DNA from: Microcoleus sp.
GTDB taxonomy: Bacteria; Cyanobacteriota; Cyanobacteriia; Cyanobacteriales; Microcoleaceae
Direction: 5' to 3'
Assembly: GCA_042408215.1 (NCBI GenBank)
Contig: JAYFMW010000014.1
Location: 1 to 64,000 of the forward strand
Length of the DNA stretch: 64,000 nt
Made by a program: the position numbers and the translations under genes. Shown here one piece after another: positions 54,186 through 62,125 of the stretch (position 1 is its first letter; the number at the start of each line of letters is the position of its first letter). A model generated the notes under the pieces. The model was not told the origin of the DNA. It searched no databases and worked only from the letters and a program-made list of their open reading frames with translations.

Positions 54186-55595
54186 CTACAACTGCTTCAC
54201 CTCAGCAACCAATTTGGCAACCACATCCTTAGCGCTACCAAACAACATCATCGTCTTATCCTTATAAAACAACTCATTGTCAACACCCGAAAAACCAGCA
54301 CTCATCCCGCGCTTAATTACGATCGTATGCTTAGCCTTATCAACCTCCAAAATCGGCATCCCATAAATCGGGCTCGCCGTATCGTGACGCGCCGCCGGAT
54401 TCACCACATCATTCGCACCAATCACCAACGCCACATCCGTCTCTTCAAACTGCGGATTGATATCGTCCATATCGTACAACTGCGGATAAGGCACGTTTGC
54501 TTCTGCTAGCAACACATTCATGTGCCCCGGCATCCGCCCAGCCACCGGGTGAATCGCGTATTTGACGTCAACTCCCATTTTTTCCAAACCGTCGGCTAAC
54601 TCGCGCACGGCGTGTTGTGCTTGCGCTACAGCCATCCCGTAGCCCGGAACGATCACAACCGATCGCGCATAACCCAACATCATCGCACTTTCTTCAATAT
54701 CAATGCTGTGAACAGTTTTGTCGATCGCCCCAGCAGCAGCCCCAGCAGCCCCAGCACTAGCACCACCGCTACCAAAGGCGCTAAACAACACGCTAGAAAG
54801 CGATCGATTCATCGCCTTACACATGATTTGCGTCAAAATAATCCCCGACGCGCCAACAAGTGCACCAGCGATAATCAGCATATTGTTCATCAAAATGAAC
54901 CCAGCCACACTCGCCGCAATCCCCGAATAGGAGTTAAGCAGCGACACCACCACCGGCATATCGCCGCCCCCAATCGGGAGCACAAACATGATTCCCAGAA
55001 TATTGGAAATCGCCACCAAAGCCAGGAATACCGGCACATTCTCCGGATTCGTCAGCATATAACCGCTGCCCGCTAAAAGCGCGATCGCCAGTAAAGCATT
55101 AAACGGCTGTTGTAGCGGAAACGTGACAGGAGCACCAGGTAGCAATTCTTGCAGCTTCGCAAACGCCACAACGCTACCAGTGAAAGTAATCCCGCCAATC
55201 AACACACCCAAAAGGATCGTGATTGTCGCGTCTGGAGTCGGCGATTCCGGGATGCTGAGATAGCGCCAGAATTCGCCCACAGCAACGAGTGCAGAAGCCG
55301 CGCCCCCAAAACCGTTAAGCAAACCCACCATCTGCGGCATATCCGTCATCGCCACGGTTTTCGCCATAATTGTTCCCAAAATGGAACCGATGATAATTCC
55401 GACAGCAATCAATTCGTAGCTGACTACTTGTTTTTCCAGCAACGTACCGACGATCGCAATCAACATCCCGATCGCAGCTAACACATTTCCTTGACGGGCG
55501 GTTGCGGGCGATCCCAACTGTTTCAAACCGACAATAAACAAAGATGCGGCAACTAAATAACCTAGTTGAATGGCACTTGGCAGAAAATCACTCAC
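54186..55595 (-). CDS. pntB: NAD(P) transhydrogenase beta subunit
   Basis: GGDMPVV, VPGYGMAVAQAQ and HPVAGRMPGHMNVLLAEA. Confidence 0.97.
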   Translation of the reverse strand: MSDFLPSAIQLGYLVAASLFIVGLKQLGSPATARQGNVLAAIGMLIAIVGTLLEKQVVSYELIAVGIIIGSILGTIMAKTVAMTDMPQMVGLLNGFGGAASALVAVGEFWRYLSIPESPTPDATITILLGVLIGGITFTGSVVAFAKLQELLPGAPVTFPLQQPFNALLAIALLAGSGYMLTNPENVPVFLALVAISNILGIMFVLPIGGGDMPVVVSLLNSYSGIAASVAGFILMNNMLIIAGALVGASGIILTQIMCKAMNRSLSSVLFSAFGSGGASAGAAGAAAGAIDKTVHSIDIEESAMMLGYARSVVIVPGYGMAVAQAQHAVRELADGLEKMGVDVKYAIHPVAGRMPGHMNVLLAEANVPYPQLYDMDDINPQFEETDVALVIGANDVVNPAARHDTASPIYGMPILEVDKAKHTIVIKRGMSAGFSGVDNELFYKDKTMMLFGSAKDVVAKLVAEVKQL

Positions 55596-55637
55596 GCTTT
55601 AACCTCTAACTCTTTTCTCAGACATTTCTTGAAAATT

Positions 55638-56927
55638 TCATACAAACGAGTAGTTGTATCCATCGTTTCGTTGAACAGGCTTAATTTGATTCCGAGAAAC
55701 GCTAATCACAGTAGTGTCGTTTACTCGAATATCAAAATTTCCTTTAAACCTTGTGGTTTTAATTCGCTTGCATTTAACCCCCTCATACTTGCCGTCAATT
55801 ACAGAGACAATATCTCCAGTTTTCCAACCTTTGACCTTTTTTTTGGGCTGATAACCCTTGCGAGGAAAACCATATTTATCAGTCTGTACAACTTGGCGAC
55901 TCCCCCAACCCATAGCTTTAATTAGCAAAGGTTGATTGATTGCCAAAGTTAAACCCTGACTCACATCTCCGCAGCAAGCAGCATCTATCCAATGAGCCTT
56001 TGGTAAACCAAGTTTAGTCCGATTGAACTTAGTTAAAGAACCACGTCCTACATATATATGCTCGAGTTTTGTAGCCTTTAAAACTTCGAGCAAAGCAGAT
56101 TTAGTAGCATTGACCGCCGCCGCATCCTTTAATGGTGCTTTAGCTTGACTCATTATTCTTTTAAGAAGATCAGGCTGGCTTTTCAGAAAGTCTTTGATGT
56201 CTTCAGTCCCCTTTTTGATATTGCATTTTTTACAAGCCAAGCACAGGTTAGAAACACGATTGCTACCACCTTTAGCGCGTGGGTTCATATGCTCTACCTG
56301 TAACGGTAAATTTTCAGCACTACAGTAAGCACATTTGCGATTCCACTTTTCAAGCAGGTATTCTCTAACCTCATAACCTTGCAGTTCCCCTTGTTGATAT
56401 TCAATACCATAAACTTCAGGGCTTTGCATTTTTTGAGTATCAAACTTTACCAACTCAAAAGCTATTGATTTAATTGGTGCTAACTTACAAAGGCGATTCA
56501 CCCAGGTAATTGTAGTTAATACTCGATGCTGCAAACTTGGAGGTAGCCAACCTTTCCGACGAATACGATTAAAAAATCGCAGCTGACGATAACGAGTCTT
56601 ACGATTACGGCGGTTGCGTCGGATGGCACGGCGAGTTTCCAGTCGCGATTTGATAGCTTGCCCCCGATGGGTAAGTTCAGCACCCCAAATTACTTGGGTT
56701 AAGAACACCAAAGCTATACCAGTAGTTTTACTACCAGGATCGATGCGAATTTCTATTGGTTGTGGTTGTTCCTCTACTGATTTGTTGAGGATGATTGCAA
56801 ATGGGTACAGTCTGAAAACTTTTGCTTTGCCTGCATTTAATAGCTTTCTAGCTATCACTGGCAGGCACGGGGTTAAAGGTTTCTTCCTGCTATCGAGTAC
56901 GAATACTTGATTGGGATTTTTAGACAT
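55638..56927 (-). CDS. iscB: IscB RNA-guided endonuclease (Cas9 ancestor)
   Basis: PLTP, IDPG (RuvC-I), Arg-rich bridge helix, ELVKFD, CAYC..EH..N..CKKCN (HNH) and HWIDA. Confidence 0.95.
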   Translation of the reverse strand: MSKNPNQVFVLDSRKKPLTPCLPVIARKLLNAGKAKVFRLYPFAIILNKSVEEQPQPIEIRIDPGSKTTGIALVFLTQVIWGAELTHRGQAIKSRLETRRAIRRNRRNRKTRYRQLRFFNRIRRKGWLPPSLQHRVLTTITWVNRLCKLAPIKSIAFELVKFDTQKMQSPEVYGIEYQQGELQGYEVREYLLEKWNRKCAYCSAENLPLQVEHMNPRAKGGSNRVSNLCLACKKCNIKKGTEDIKDFLKSQPDLLKRIMSQAKAPLKDAAAVNATKSALLEVLKATKLEHIYVGRGSLTKFNRTKLGLPKAHWIDAACCGDVSQGLTLAINQPLLIKAMGWGSRQVVQTDKYGFPRKGYQPKKKVKGWKTGDIVSVIDGKYEGVKCKRIKTTRFKGNFDIRVNDTTVISVSRNQIKPVQRNDGYNYSFV

Positions 56928-57125
56928 GGTTGCGTCTATTCCTAATTAGTAAAGGTTGCCTTGGCATTGTTATTGGTCGGTATGATCTCAACAGCACTGG
57001 CTTTACAAAATCCTTGCCTGTTTAACTGCCGAGTTATAGAGCTTGGGGCTGGCACGTACTCCAAGGTATGAACTTGAACGCTTGCCAATAACGAAAGCCT
57101 GGACTTACTTAGAATTTTCTGGGTT
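56928..57125 (-). ncRNA. IscB omega-RNA (HEARO-like) scaffold
   Basis: Directly upstream of iscB; CGTTAT..CATACCTTGGAGTACGTGCCAGCCCCAAGCTCTAT..GTTAAACAG..CAGTG..ATAACAATGCCAAGGCAAC. Boundaries approximate. Confidence 0.75.
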
Positions 57126-57138
57126 TATTCAGAAATGT

Positions 57139-57435
57139 CTAGGATTTGAGTAAGTCTTTTTTCTTGAACATTTGTAGCATTCGATCGGTGACTAAGAAAC
57201 CGCCGACAACGTTAATTGTGGCAAGGGCGATCGCGATCGTCCCCAAAATCGAAGTAACAGTCACATTACCTTGGCCTGAAATTAGAATTGCGCCTAAAAC
57301 CGCAATTCCTGAAATCGCATTGGAACCCGACATCAAAGGTGTGTGTAGCGTCGGTGGGACTTTGTTAATTACTTCAAATCCCACAAACGATGCTAGAGTA
57401 AACACCACTAAACCTGCAATCAATCCTTCTGCCAT
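57139..57435 (-). CDS. pntA: NAD(P) transhydrogenase alpha subunit, part 2
   Basis: LHTPLMSGSNAISG and GGFLVTDRML. Confidence 0.95.
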   Translation of the reverse strand: MAEGLIAGLVVFTLASFVGFEVINKVPPTLHTPLMSGSNAISGIAVLGAILISGQGNVTVTSILGTIAIALATINVVGGFLVTDRMLQMFKKKDLLKS

Positions 57436-57441
57436 AATACT

Positions 57442-57615
57442 TGGTAATTGGTAATTGGTTATTTGTCATTAGTCATTAGTTGTTAGTCATTAGTCATTAG
57501 TTGTTAGTCATTAGTTGTTAGTCATTAGTTGTTATTTTCAATGACTCCCGACTCCCGACTACCGACTACTAACTACTAACTAATGACTACTAACTAATGA
57601 CTAATGACTACTGAC
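57442..57615. repeat. STRR tracts (AGTCATT / TAATGAC)
   Basis: Directly visible, with inverted orientation. Confidence 0.8.
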
Positions 57616-58763
57616 TAATGACTGCTGACTGCGGAAGCAGCCAAAGCATCCCGCACTCGCTGGTTACTAATTTCACCATCACGAGCCACACAGGAACCAG
57701 CGATGATATCGTCTTCAAAATTCAGATTTAGCTCCTTATCTTTCAGCATCAACTGAAGCAAAGACGAGACATTCTTCGAGTAAGTTTCACTAGCATGAAC
57801 AGGCATTGAGGATGGTAAATTAATCGGGCCAATCACATTAACACCGTTCCATTCAACATCTTTTCCTGCTTCCGTGCACTCGCAATTGCCGCCTTGCTCG
57901 GCCGCGAGGTCAACAATTACTGCTCCCGGTTTCATTTGAGAAACCATTTCTCTAGTCACTAAAATCGGTGCTTTTCTACCAGGAACTTGAGCCGTTGTAA
58001 TCACCGCATCGGAAGCACCGACGTGCTGGGTGAGCACTTGACGGGTGTGTTCTTTAGCGGCTTCTGATAATTCTTTAGCATAGCCGCCTGCTGCTACAGT
58101 TTCTTCTTTGAGTTCGACATCAATAAATTTAGCACCCAAACTTTGCACTTGTTCTTTTGTTTCTGGGCGGATGTCAAATGCTTCGACTACTGCGCCCAAA
58201 CGACGCGCCGTGGCGATCGCCTGTAAGCCCGCAACGCCCACACCCATTACCAAAACTTTCGCGGGGCGAATCGTACCCGCCGCCGTTGTCAGCATCGGAA
58301 AATACTTCGGTAAAGCCGCTGCTGCGATCAATACCGCTTTGTAACCGGCGACGTTAGCCTGAGATGACAGCGCATCCATGCTTTGAGCGCGGCTGGTGCG
58401 CGGGATCATTTCCATACTGAATGCAGTCACTTGGCGATCGGCTAAACGCTGTACCAAAGCCGGATTTCCCAAAGGATTCAAAAATCCGATGAAAACTGCT
58501 CCTTCCCGCAGTTGATGAACTTCTGACTCTTGCAATTCCCCGATTTTGACGACGACATCAGCTTCGCCCCACAGCGTAGCGGTATCGGCGACAATCTGAG
58601 CTCCGGCTTCTTCGTAAGCCAGATCCGAGAAAAAGGATTTTGCTCCGGCACCGGCCTCAACCCAAACTTGGACGCCTTGTTTTACCAATTTGGCCACAGC
58701 GTCGGGTACTAAAGCCACCCGGCGCTCGCCTGCTGCTATTTCTTTTGCGATCGCTAATTTCAT
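57615..58763 (-). CDS. pntA: NAD(P) transhydrogenase alpha subunit, part 1
   Basis: ERRVALVP, SMDALSSQ and GVGVAGLQA; ATG at 58763. Confidence 0.97.
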   Translation of the reverse strand: MKLAIAKEIAAGERRVALVPDAVAKLVKQGVQVWVEAGAGAKSFFSDLAYEEAGAQIVADTATLWGEADVVVKIGELQESEVHQLREGAVFIGFLNPLGNPALVQRLADRQVTAFSMEMIPRTSRAQSMDALSSQANVAGYKAVLIAAAALPKYFPMLTTAAGTIRPAKVLVMGVGVAGLQAIATARRLGAVVEAFDIRPETKEQVQSLGAKFIDVELKEETVAAGGYAKELSEAAKEHTRQVLTQHVGASDAVITTAQVPGRKAPILVTREMVSQMKPGAVIVDLAAEQGGNCECTEAGKDVEWNGVNVIGPINLPSSMPVHASETYSKNVSSLLQLMLKDKELNLNFEDDIIAGSCVARDGEISNQRVRDALAASAVSSH

Positions 58764-59230
58764 AAACAAACTCGGTAAGTGGGAAACTCAGTGGCTTTAG
58801 CCCGCTCGTGGGAAACGACCCTTCGACTGCGCTCAGGGCGACGCACGAGCGGTTTTAACCGCTTTGAATAACTTGTTTTATTACCGCCTTGGAGTTGTTC
58901 AATTCGGTGTGCTTTTGTGATGCACTTTCAATGGGACAGTTACCATTTCAAATTTCACAACCCTGTACGCATAATAGTTTTGCTCGATTGACAAGCCTCC
59001 CATTTCTGGGGTAATGTTAGCTTCGACCTGTTATAAGAGCTTGTTGGGCTTGCAACACTGTTCCAGTGACCTTAGAACTGTTTAATCACAAGCGACAGAG
59101 CGGGGAACTAGCTACGCATTCGCCCGGTGTCGTGACTCAAATAACGGCTCCTCTTACGAGGGGTCTGGTCAATACGGCTTGCGAGAGATTTCTCTTACAA
59201 GCTCAGTCCCTTTAGGGCTGGGTTACTGAC
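58764..59230 (-). mobile_element. Protein-less IscB-type element carrying a stand-alone omega/HEARO RNA
   Basis: Minus strand GTCAGTAACCCAGCCCTAAAGGGACTGAGCTTG..TTGACCAGACC..CGTTAT..GACACC..GAATGCGTAGCTAGTTCC..TTAAACAG..ATAACAGGTCGAAGCTAACATTACC; parallels 56928-57125. Confidence 0.75.
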
Positions 59231-59547
59231 GAACTCTCCTTTACTCTCGTTGATAGTAAAGCCGATCGCCCAAATTCGAGCCGTATCTTTAACTTGTCTT
59301 ATAGATTCAGATTCGCTAAATTGTTAAATTTGTTACGTCCCATGATATACTAACGTGCTGACTAATTCTGTAGCTTGAATATCAGCCTGGGATATGGCAT
59401 CAAAAAATTCACCTATATTGTTAAGCGATCGCCCTCATCAAATTTCTCAGAGAGTCGGTAATATTGGAGAGCTAATAGCAAATTGTCAGCACTAAATATT
59501 TGCTAAATATTCAAGGTTCGATCGTAATTTTATTTAGAGGAGTTGTT

Positions 59548-60614: not shown

Positions 60615-60845
60615 GCCGGGGCGTAGCCATCGCCCTCCTTTGAGATTTCAGGTATTTTCGATCGCGGATTTGAGTTGAGTTCGATCGCGGGGCGATCGTC
60701 GGAGAATTCGCCTTTCTGAGAGTGTTGAGATAGCGGGCGATCGCACTTCCTTTCAGATTCGCCCCGACGCGCAGAATCAGAAACACCGCCAAGCTTTCGA
60801 GCTCTGGCTGAGTCATGCACGCGCGATCGGCCTCAAAGTCCTCAT

Positions 60846-62125
60846 CAGAGAATTGGGTAGAAACCCCGTCCTTTAGGACGGCTTTACATTTAATATGTTA
60901 GTATGTGAAGTATGGAAAAAGCTCACCGTTACCGATTTTACCCAACGCCTGAACAAGAGTCGCTATTGCGACGCACATTGGGCTGCGTAAGATTGGTTTA
61001 CAACAAGGCTCTCCACGAGAGAACCCAGGCTTGGTACGAGAGACAAGAAAGAGTTGGATACAACCAGACTTCTTCTATGCTGACTCAATGGAAAAAAGAG
61101 GAAGATCTTGATTTTCTGAATGAGGTTAGCTGCGTACCATTGCAACAAGGGCTTAGACATCTTCAAACTGCTTTCACTAATTTTTTCGCAGTCAGGACTA
61201 AATATCCCAACTTCAAGAAGAAACATCATGGTGGCAGTGCTGAGTTTACTAAATCGGCTTTTAAGTTCAAAAATAAAGAAATTTATCTTGCCAAAAACTC
61301 TGAGCCATTACCGATTAAATGGTCTAGACAAATTCCCAAAGGATGTGAACCGAGCAGTGTAACGGTTAGTCTCCATCCCTCTGGACGCTGGCAGATCTCG
61401 ATTAGGTTTGATGCTCCAACGATTCAACCTTTGCCCATTAGCGACAATTCTGTAGGAATAGATTTGGGAATAACGAGTTTGATTGCGACCAGTAATGGTG
61501 ACAAGATCGCTAATCCCAAGCATTTAAAAAAGCATCTAAAGCGTTTGAAGAAAGCGCAAAAGAATCTTTATCGTAAACAGAAAGGTTCCAAAAACAGAGA
61601 AAAGGCGAGAATTAAGGTTGCTAAAATTCACCTGAAAATCTCCGACGATCGCAAAAATTTATTGCATAAGTTGACAACTCAATTGGTCCGCGAAAATCAA
61701 ACAATTGCTGTTGAGTCGTTGGCGGTTAAGAATATGGTCAAAAACCCTAAACTCGCCTTGGCTATTTCTGATAGCGGATGGAGTGAATTGATTCGACAAC
61801 TGGATTACAAATGTCGTTGGTACGGAAGGAAATTGGTCGCAATTGACCGATGGTTTCCTAGTTCCAAGCGTTGTAGCCACTGTGGGCAGATTGTCGATAA
61901 AATGCCTCTTAATATTCGTGATTGGACTTGTCCGAGTTGTGGTTGTAACCACGCTCGGGATGTCAACGCAAGTAAAAACATTTTGGCCGCTGGACTAGCG
62001 GTGTCAGTCTGGGGAGCGAGTGTAAGACCAGAGCAGAGTAAATCTGTTAAGGCTTCTGCTATGAAACAGAAACTTAAATCGTGAGGTTTAGGAATCCTAG
62101 CCCTTTAGGGCGGGGAGGATGTCAA
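60846..62125 (+). mobile_element. IS605-family element with tnpB, no tnpA
   Basis: CTCAT|CAGAGAATTGGGTAGAAACCCCGTCCTTTAGGACGGCTTT left end; GGAATCCTAGCCCTTTAGGGCGGGGAGGATGTCAA right end. Confidence 0.88.
60912..62084 (+). CDS. tnpB: TnpB RNA-guided nuclease (intact)
   Basis: YRFYPTPEQ HTH, GIDLG, AVESL, CSHC/CPSC zinc finger and RDVNA. Confidence 0.95.
   Translation: MEKAHRYRFYPTPEQESLLRRTLGCVRLVYNKALHERTQAWYERQERVGYNQTSSMLTQWKKEEDLDFLNEVSCVPLQQGLRHLQTAFTNFFAVRTKYPNFKKKHHGGSAEFTKSAFKFKNKEIYLAKNSEPLPIKWSRQIPKGCEPSSVTVSLHPSGRWQISIRFDAPTIQPLPISDNSVGIDLGITSLIATSNGDKIANPKHLKKHLKRLKKAQKNLYRKQKGSKNREKARIKVAKIHLKISDDRKNLLHKLTTQLVRENQTIAVESLAVKNMVKNPKLALAISDSGWSELIRQLDYKCRWYGRKLVAIDRWFPSSKRCSHCGQIVDKMPLNIRDWTCPSCGCNHARDVNASKNILAAGLAVSVWGASVRPEQSKSVKASAMKQKLKS

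Follow-up and report, generated by a model that had tools for sequence, protein, structure and literature searches.

Elements of the IS200/IS605 family are inserted and excised precisely by the Y1 transposase TnpA. The target of two cyanobacterial kinds, the ISC1-1_MA and IS605B elements, has been published as N|ATGA (in the part of PMC4810608 drawn on here), and the TAM of GstIscB is given as TTCAT, which is ATGAA on the opposite strand, in passages of a preprint (bioRxiv 10.1101/2023.03.14.532601) whose naming of the ends is also followed here: right end denotes the scaffold, and left end the side facing ATGA. According to these passages, IscB loaded with omega RNA cuts the empty site, recognized by guide and TAM, and recombination then restores the element (bioRxiv 10.1101/2023.03.14.532601). 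Because N|ATGA targets as well as guide-only elements are in print, the type of element described below is already known; ATGA-like TAMs, which the initial annotation of this locus had ascribed to some IscBs, are borne out by the N|ATGA and TTCAT of these two sources.

Orphan omega-RNA element at the pntA start codon

In the window (the whole 64,000-nucleotide stretch of Microcoleus sp. DNA that was analysed), a 467-bp element without ORF had been annotated at 58764..59230, exactly between the Shine-Dalgarno (SD) motif and the start codon of pntA, and both coordinates and length proved exact (Table 1). The presumed omega/HEARO-like scaffold was confirmed with Rfam: the match to RF02033 (59011-59230, minus strand) spans all 211 model positions, scores 135.9 bits against a gathering threshold of 83, and is the only one at gathering level in the 64-kb window. 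By covariance model the orphan is a HEARO or omega RNA, and it contains no iscB ORF; tblastn detected no IscB homology within the 467 bp, where the longest ATG-started frame has 34 codons. An iscB remnant or a small ORF was considered for the interior and rejected, as there is no homology and indels of 1–2 nt among the copies break the frame.

Table 1. Features of the pnt region in the window.
Feature	Position	Strand	Remarks
pntB (beta subunit)	54186..55595	-	
Unrelated IscB element	55605..57154	-	1550 bp, ends uncertain by 3 bases; at the pntA2/pntB junction; iscB 55638-56927, omega 56949-57156; not of the ATGA family
pntA2 (4TM part)	57139..57435	-	Neighbouring IscB element has replaced the final codons, so that the end reads KKKDLLKS*, not KKKEVKA*
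pntA (NAD(P) transhydrogenase alpha, part 1)	57615..58763	-	Intact
TAM ATGA	58760..58763	-	pntA bases 1-4
Orphan IS200/IS605 (ISC-type) element	58764..59230	-	467 bp, non-autonomous, without ORF, without target duplication; empty sites in congeners
Transposon left end	58764..58821	-	Subterminal hairpin, conserved core, U-rich tail; common to about 35 copies
Second structured RNA	58879..58976	-	~100 nt; long interrupted stem leading to a three-way junction, two hairpins (8-nt and 9-nt conserved loops), GAAA linker; no Rfam family
HEARO/IscB omega-RNA scaffold (transposon right end)	59011..59230	-	Rfam RF02033, 135.9 bits
Predicted guide	59231..59250	-	Host pntA leader with displaced SD AAGGAG (59236-59241); predicted from its position 5′ of the scaffold and the rule published in bioRxiv 10.1101/2023.03.14.532601 (passages used)

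The element is bordered by AAGGAG plus 5 nt on its 5′ side and by the pntA ATG (58763) on its 3′ side. This ATG is the true start, as residue 1 aligns to model position 1 of NF006942. The empty site that had been reconstructed by deleting the element occurs in relatives. Among 40 relatives searched, 24 of them of the same genus, 22 congener pntA loci (L002-L023) were returned, and in 21 of these the pntA start is an AGGAG-type site directly before ATG with no element; in one (G014/L002), the distance from anchor to ATG is 83 compared with 550 here, a difference of exactly 467. At the 22nd locus (G011/L020), a different element of the same kind sits at the identical base. Both junctions of the 467-bp element are also spanned by public contigs (X19/X20), which possibly represent source material and are, therefore, not independent. 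Among the joints listed from public RNA contigs, none skipped 58764-59230; public RNA contigs over the element are other copies or come from other strains. Each of 18 RNA runs contained <0.2 of the words, and the two examined (X1, X2) held relatives or paralogs only.

The orphan is a non-autonomous member of IS200/IS605 (ISC/PATE) with an IscB omega RNA, and neither a full HEARO locus nor an IStron. It shares with IS200/IS605 elements the precise insertion at a 4–5 nt motif without duplication, subterminal hairpins in left ends related to those of TnpA- and TnpB-coding elements, and the occurrence in multiple dispersed copies that are polymorphic among relatives. In total, the genome yielded 70 HEARO matches (64 over the cut-off), and about 43 elements are of the present kind. 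When the genome was searched with a left-end pattern that did not itself contain ATGA, nearly all true copies were followed by ATGA. In other genomes, ATGA lay within 5–14 nt after 109 of 111 exact left-end matches among the matches listed, the two misses being non-cyanobacterial records; most of the named records with this left end come from Microcoleus and its relatives. A further set contained as exceptions one GTGA and five unparsed ends (ATAC, ATAA, GTGA or interrupted). Thus, the copies have the common 3′ motif anticipated in the annotation. Of the TAM proposed there, ATGA(A), the first four bases stand and the fifth does not: it is an A in 29/54 elements versus 861/2143 ATGA starts and hence not fixed, which makes the TAM ATGA rather than ATGAA.

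The predicted guide was likewise placed in the 5′ flank containing the pntA SD, and its position 5′ of the scaffold supports this. Its last 8 nt followed by ATGA occur at no second site in the genome, nor do its 14 nt with ≤2 mismatches; three genomic sites appear for the 14 nt only at 3 mismatches. A role for the guide as regulator of the SD regions of other genes was rejected, given 0 sites at 8 nt plus ATGA. In the filled pntA allele, no TAM adjoins the target.

Several observations were made in passing. A short palindromic insert (58819-58838) adjoins the left end of the orphan, and similar inserts break loops of the internal RNA (see below) in paralogs. In one relative (L017, G001:C6:3501-3726, homologous to window position ~59540), an omega orphan precedes a divergent DUF2808 gene; GAGGA borders it on one side and, on the other, a GTGA target lying 6 nt ahead of the ATG. 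In two genomes (G000 C17:266820 and L097), an orphan is inserted in frame seven codons from the end of a gene of 438+ codons.

The pnt operon and candidate IscB partners

Through the insertion, the native SD of pntA was displaced by 467 nt to become the predicted guide, and the new initiation region is the U-rich tail of the left end, which has no SD. The predicted accessibility around the pntA AUG is 0.54 for the filled and 0.57 for the empty allele; across 28 sites, the modelled accessibility of the start did not change (0.51 versus 0.54, p=0.19). An SD-like motif is present at only 516 of the 2143 ATGA starts of the genome, genes bearing one are not preferred by the orphans (6/28), and the element end itself provides such a motif in just 3 of the 28 sites. 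Because accessibility appears unchanged and few ATGA starts have an SD, pntA translation probably continues despite the insertion. No sense-strand terminator was found inside the element, and a promoter scan of it gave 3 matches compared with 1.5 expected. As the annotation had proposed, the 467-nt insert would form a structured leader of the pnt mRNA; the MFE fold of the whole leader missed the HEARO pseudoknot and was left out of the analysis.

Such a structured leader of 467 nt could have been domesticated for regulation of the pnt operon, either riboswitch-like or controlled by IscB. The internal fold with its conserved loops would be in line with this, as would the fact that the pntA start is occupied by elements in three lineages, 467 nt long here, 377 nt in G011/L020, and 371 nt in L064. 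However, the site is devoid of an element in 21/22 congener loci, the three elements differ, and the same RNA stands ahead of unrelated genes; moreover, the cognate IscBs retain their catalytic residues, and the guide lacks any other close genomic target. Domestication is, therefore, highly improbable. The three elements are 61–80% identical to each other and the coding sequences 87.5–92.6%; a copy elsewhere in the present genome has 93% identity to the one in L064. Regardless of the elements, the pntA leader of most congeners (L003-L023) contains 40–300 extra small-repeat bases upstream of the SD, which are absent from this genome and G014. Between pntA and pntA2 (57440-57630) lies a short tandem-repeat tract with inverted arms that is highly multi-copy in public contigs.

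The operon harbors two independent omega elements, the second of which encodes the IscB that had been suggested as a partner in trans; its ORF (55638-56927) is indeed present, 1837 bp away. The 5′ end of the omega of this neighbouring element gives PntA2 a new C-terminus and stop and leaves GAGG before the GTG of pntB, which is uncoupled. Proximity and intact catalytic columns could argue for this IscB being the working partner, with both elements forming one local unit. In contrast, its omega scores 70.8 bits with RF02033, under the cut-off, and is 53.9% identical to the orphan scaffold, near the bottom among the 70. Left end and target context differ in both of its copies: the second one (on C7, 88.6% identical) also ends before GAG(G/T)TTA, and the ATGA at the stop codon of the neighbouring iscB is internal to the element and missing from the C7 copy. 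The protein has 60–61% identity to the two IscBs described below and a C-terminal region unlike that of ATGA-family IscBs, and the element is a separate insertion with its own empty site, found in relatives (KKKEVKA*) and in contigs of all four runs. The two are not a cognate pair with the same scaffold family and the same TAM. On account of scaffold identity, GAG(G/T)TTA context, distinct C-terminal region and different left end, the neighbouring IscB was dismissed as partner, and a local unit of this kind is most unlikely.

Judging from their sequences, two intact IscBs elsewhere in the genome (C8:38348 and C3:407065) are likelier partners. Both are 423-aa ORFs with the catalytic columns D/E/H/N/N/H/D and the CxxC pairs intact, their omegas are 77.7 and 76.1% identical to that of the orphan, respectively, and they have the same left end and ATGA. 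Two Y1 TnpA genes uninterrupted by stops, at C13:77171 and C30:360795, are accompanied by ATGA and a related left end. A further full-length IscB (427 aa; G000 C6:362004) has Ala at the RuvC-I Asp column and an intact HNH, and may be a natural nickase.

A second structured RNA inside the element

Neither the membership of the orphan in a family of ~43 nor the second structured RNA in its interior (Table 1) was recognised in the initial annotation. The region scores z=−2.27 when folded on the omega strand and only −0.83 on the opposite one. In an alignment of 23 copies, from which the structure was also derived, 99% of the cells are paired and 11 of the 27 pairs have changed on both sides, which 0 of 500 shuffles reached. 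On the tree of the adjacent scaffold (43 distinct copies), 39 partner changes occurred on the same branch, compared with a null mean of 10.6 and a maximum of 25 in 2000 permutations. Loops and linkers are conserved. By these comparisons, the internal RNA is under selection as RNA.

Rfam returned no match for it (best E 0.89, on the wrong strand) and none in five paralogs; identity with a known Rfam RNA was rejected, the three matches being at chance level and on the opposite strand only. The core of a hammerhead ribozyme is CUGANGA/GAAA/UH. The consensus of the internal RNA has GA and GAAA around one stem without CUGANGA or UH and no Rfam match, and a hammerhead was, hence, discarded. So was a glnA riboswitch, to which there was no match; the element does not match a group I intron model either. 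No description of the motif was found in the literature that is accessible without subscription, supplements apart.

A model built for the internal RNA detected it 22 times in this genome; of 150 further genomes from the phylum, 15 had matches, and these fall into three cyanobacterial families. In all 30 loci examined, it follows an omega scaffold immediately, and no iscB separates the two; within this genome, 20 of the 22 copies are behind a HEARO match, and the other two belong to split or relic elements. Mobility does not depend on it, since just 18 of 39 orphans contain it. In 19 of the 39, a hairpin module with an AACCA(T/G)A loop is found instead (e.g., G000 C30:473030 and C8:84300); this consists of one or two hairpins, is similar to the bases immediately ahead of the iscB start codon, and possibly acts as a protein-binding decoy. 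The internal RNA most likely serves the omega RNA as a 3′ boundary, stabiliser or processing signal within the host leader.

Excess of orphans at start codons and comparison with known systems

Genes were called with a home-made, self-trained model (6070 genes) that misses those <40 codons; orphans at start codons were counted by a fixed rule and again after corrections. Starts make up 2433 of 50012 ATGA sites in the genome (4.9%), or 2433 of 15755 (15.4%) of those where insertion breaks no gene. Both ends are defined in 39 orphans, of which the fixed rule places 27 at starts (p=7e-14); a further orphan was left out as it has no defined 5′ end. The corrected count is 32/43, after addition of four elements missed by the parser, three of them at starts, and with petL and petM (<40 codons) taken into account. 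Elements with omega and IscB are at starts in 7/14 cases. In other genomes and among the matches listed, 56 of 68 orphans open a coding frame (two more, cut by the end of the locus, were dropped), 38 of 46 pass the full start test, and 47 of 59 are at starts after merging repeats of one gene; a third set, picked by the internal motif, gave 17/23. The p-values are overstated because these genomes are kin and were scored with the gene model of the present one. In 12 of 16 proteins hand-picked as start-like, NCBIfam model positions 1–6 fall within residues 1–7. Thus, the excess of orphans at start codons is strong. Targets include pntA, rpsP, rplS, petM, and chlB, many being photosynthesis or translation genes. 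The supposition that such elements tend to land at translation starts holds insofar as they sit there in strong excess; preferential landing does not follow from it, as the data fit retention equally.

A tentative explanation is that retention depends on the guide: only copies transcribed from a host promoter produce it, so only these would be restored by IscB after excision. TnpA/TnpB-type elements, which need no outside promoter, have related left ends and ATGA and open a coding frame in 5/22 cases versus 84/108 for orphans among the matches listed (Fisher p=1.6e-6). One such control, a TnpB element at 60845-62084 of the window (ORF 60912-62084), resembles one subgroup of omega orphans in its left end and ATGA target (60845, minus strand) and lies away from a start codon. 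Retention is also consistent with the orientation bias published for IscB and not for TnpB (passages of bioRxiv 10.1101/2023.03.14.532601), with the scaffold of the orphan still scoring 135.9 bits and, weakly, with the downstream gene of omega copies away from starts being on the same strand in 11/16 cases compared with 6/14 for controls. However, the controls are mostly young, being 92–100% identical to a sister copy, and if only young copies are compared, those with omega and IscB (3/8) do not differ from those without omega (4/14; p=1.0). Of the older IscB copies of the E family, both are at starts, against 3/8 of the young ones. Within the orphans, age-dependence was not seen, since the 30 at starts and the 9 elsewhere do not differ in HEARO score (p=0.71) or in identity to the nearest neighbour (p=0.53).

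Somewhat more doubtful is trapping by the host, in which the left end has become the translation-initiation region, so that its deletion is selected against while intergenic copies erode. Relics consisting of the left end only, without omega, are at starts as well, in 8/11 cases here and in 11/16 elsewhere (among the matches listed); one of ~28 nt is kept at one gene in five genomes, and a hisG relic is common to another genome. Trapping requires that TnpA be rare, because precise excision would bring back the native SD, and it leaves the intact scaffold and internal fold of most orphans unexplained. Moreover, several relics begin with the 5′ end of omega and may, therefore, owe their place to guide-dependent retention. 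Irrespective of their origin, left-end-only relics down to about 28 nt directly before starts (L037, L080, L085, L096, L107, and G000 C6:923549; e.g., hisG) may have been exapted as translation-initiation regions.

A preference of TnpA for ATGA in an extended sequence context, or in exposed single-stranded DNA near strong promoters, is a rather unlikely cause. The same start was taken by different elements in different genomes five times (pntA, rplS, fusA, psb27, and one more) compared with 0.9 expected (p about 0.002), and, as mentioned, many targets are photosynthesis or translation genes. In contrast, no significant enrichment at starts is seen for young elements that have related ends and lack omega (4/14, p=0.16), and recurrence could also result from retention at strong promoters or from gene conversion replacing one element by another. 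The recurrent hits, thus, fit either targeting to, or retention at, strongly expressed genes. With controls that are young and old relics that are also at starts, the bias data fit guide-dependent retention, host trapping, and targeting.

Overall, the orphan is protein-less (PATE-like) and probably derives from an IscB transposon that targets ATGA; start-codon copies would persist longer than others and, therefore, accumulate with age. TnpA would be supplied in trans by the intact Y1 genes on C13 and C30, and IscB by members of the same family (C8:38348 and C3:407065) rather than by the neighbour. Transcription of the guide, which is not part of the element, has to come from a host promoter. 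Since ATGA is the target, the ORF is preserved when an insertion occurs at a start codon; such an insertion would place the element downstream of a host promoter in the sense suited to transcribing guide and scaffold, and exchange the SD for a U-rich end of similar accessibility. Copies at start codons may, in this way, outlast others. The three-way-junction RNA would have taken the place of the iscB ORF, most likely serving the RNA within the host leader. A more far-reaching version, which we consider unlikely, regards the orphans as RNA-only parasites of start codons: thanks to the ATGA target, they would have a fresh guide transcribed from a host promoter without harming the ORF, IscB acting in trans would keep only such copies, and a new class of structured RNA, a processing site or ribozyme, would have taken over from iscB and would release the guide RNA from the host mRNA or insulate it, so that core genes (pntA, rpsP, rplS, petM, and chlB) stay translated.

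These elements offer a natural, countable test of a published question, namely whether IscB elements prefer transcribed sites or merely persist there, for which each genome supplies dozens of copies and, as controls, TnpB elements with the same ends. They show how a mobile element has rewritten the ribosome-binding regions of about 30 genes in each genome, among them many core genes of photosynthesis or translation. They further yield an uncatalogued, strongly covarying RNA motif always coupled to omega RNA and name intact candidate cognate IscBs with a probable 4-nt TAM, ATGA.

The ATGA target, the need for an outside promoter, and protein-less elements used in trans are known. The accumulation at the exact start codon, the recurrent hits, and the internal RNA motif were not found in the literature outside subscription papers and supplements; the same holds for start-codon targeting by IscB elements, and the term start codon has 0 occurrences in the main text of PMC4810608, whose supplementary figures might depict ATGA at start codons. 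ISC1-1_MA and IS605B-1_MA of Microcystis aeruginosa resemble the orphan in the 5′-GTCA end, the insertion upstream of ATGA without duplication, the ends common to TnpB elements, and TnpA acting in trans (PMC4810608, part drawn on here). Unlike ISC1-1_MA, the orphan has no iscB ORF and contains a second RNA fold. It shares with Geobacillus ISGst5 and PATE-like elements the TAM TTCAT/ATGAA, a guide outside the element that needs an outside promoter, an orientation bias towards upstream genes, and a putative retention by cut-and-copy, and with PATE-like elements also the lack of proteins, which makes use of the omega RNA in trans necessary, in a passage that concerns omega RNAs of TnpB (bioRxiv 10.1101/2023.03.14.532601, passages used). 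Unlike ISGst5, it belongs to elements whose bias is towards the very start codon of the gene that follows, and its TAM has 4 nt. HEARO RNA (RF02033; parts of PMC9755519 and PMC13565253) is matched here by a full-length scaffold, in an orphan without ORF and with an RNA domain following outside the 211-position model. IStrons, in which a group I intron is joined to IS605 (PMC13565253, in part), are likewise IS200/IS605 elements with an extra structured RNA that possibly lessens harm to the host transcript. Unlike these, the orphan has no group I intron match and no evidence of splicing, and it sits outside the coding sequence. Stand-alone IscB omega RNAs, scaffolds without iscB that are loaded in trans, were reportedly described by Altae-Tran in 2021 as trans-acting. 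From these, the orphan is set apart by both of its transposon ends, its many copies, and its mobility.
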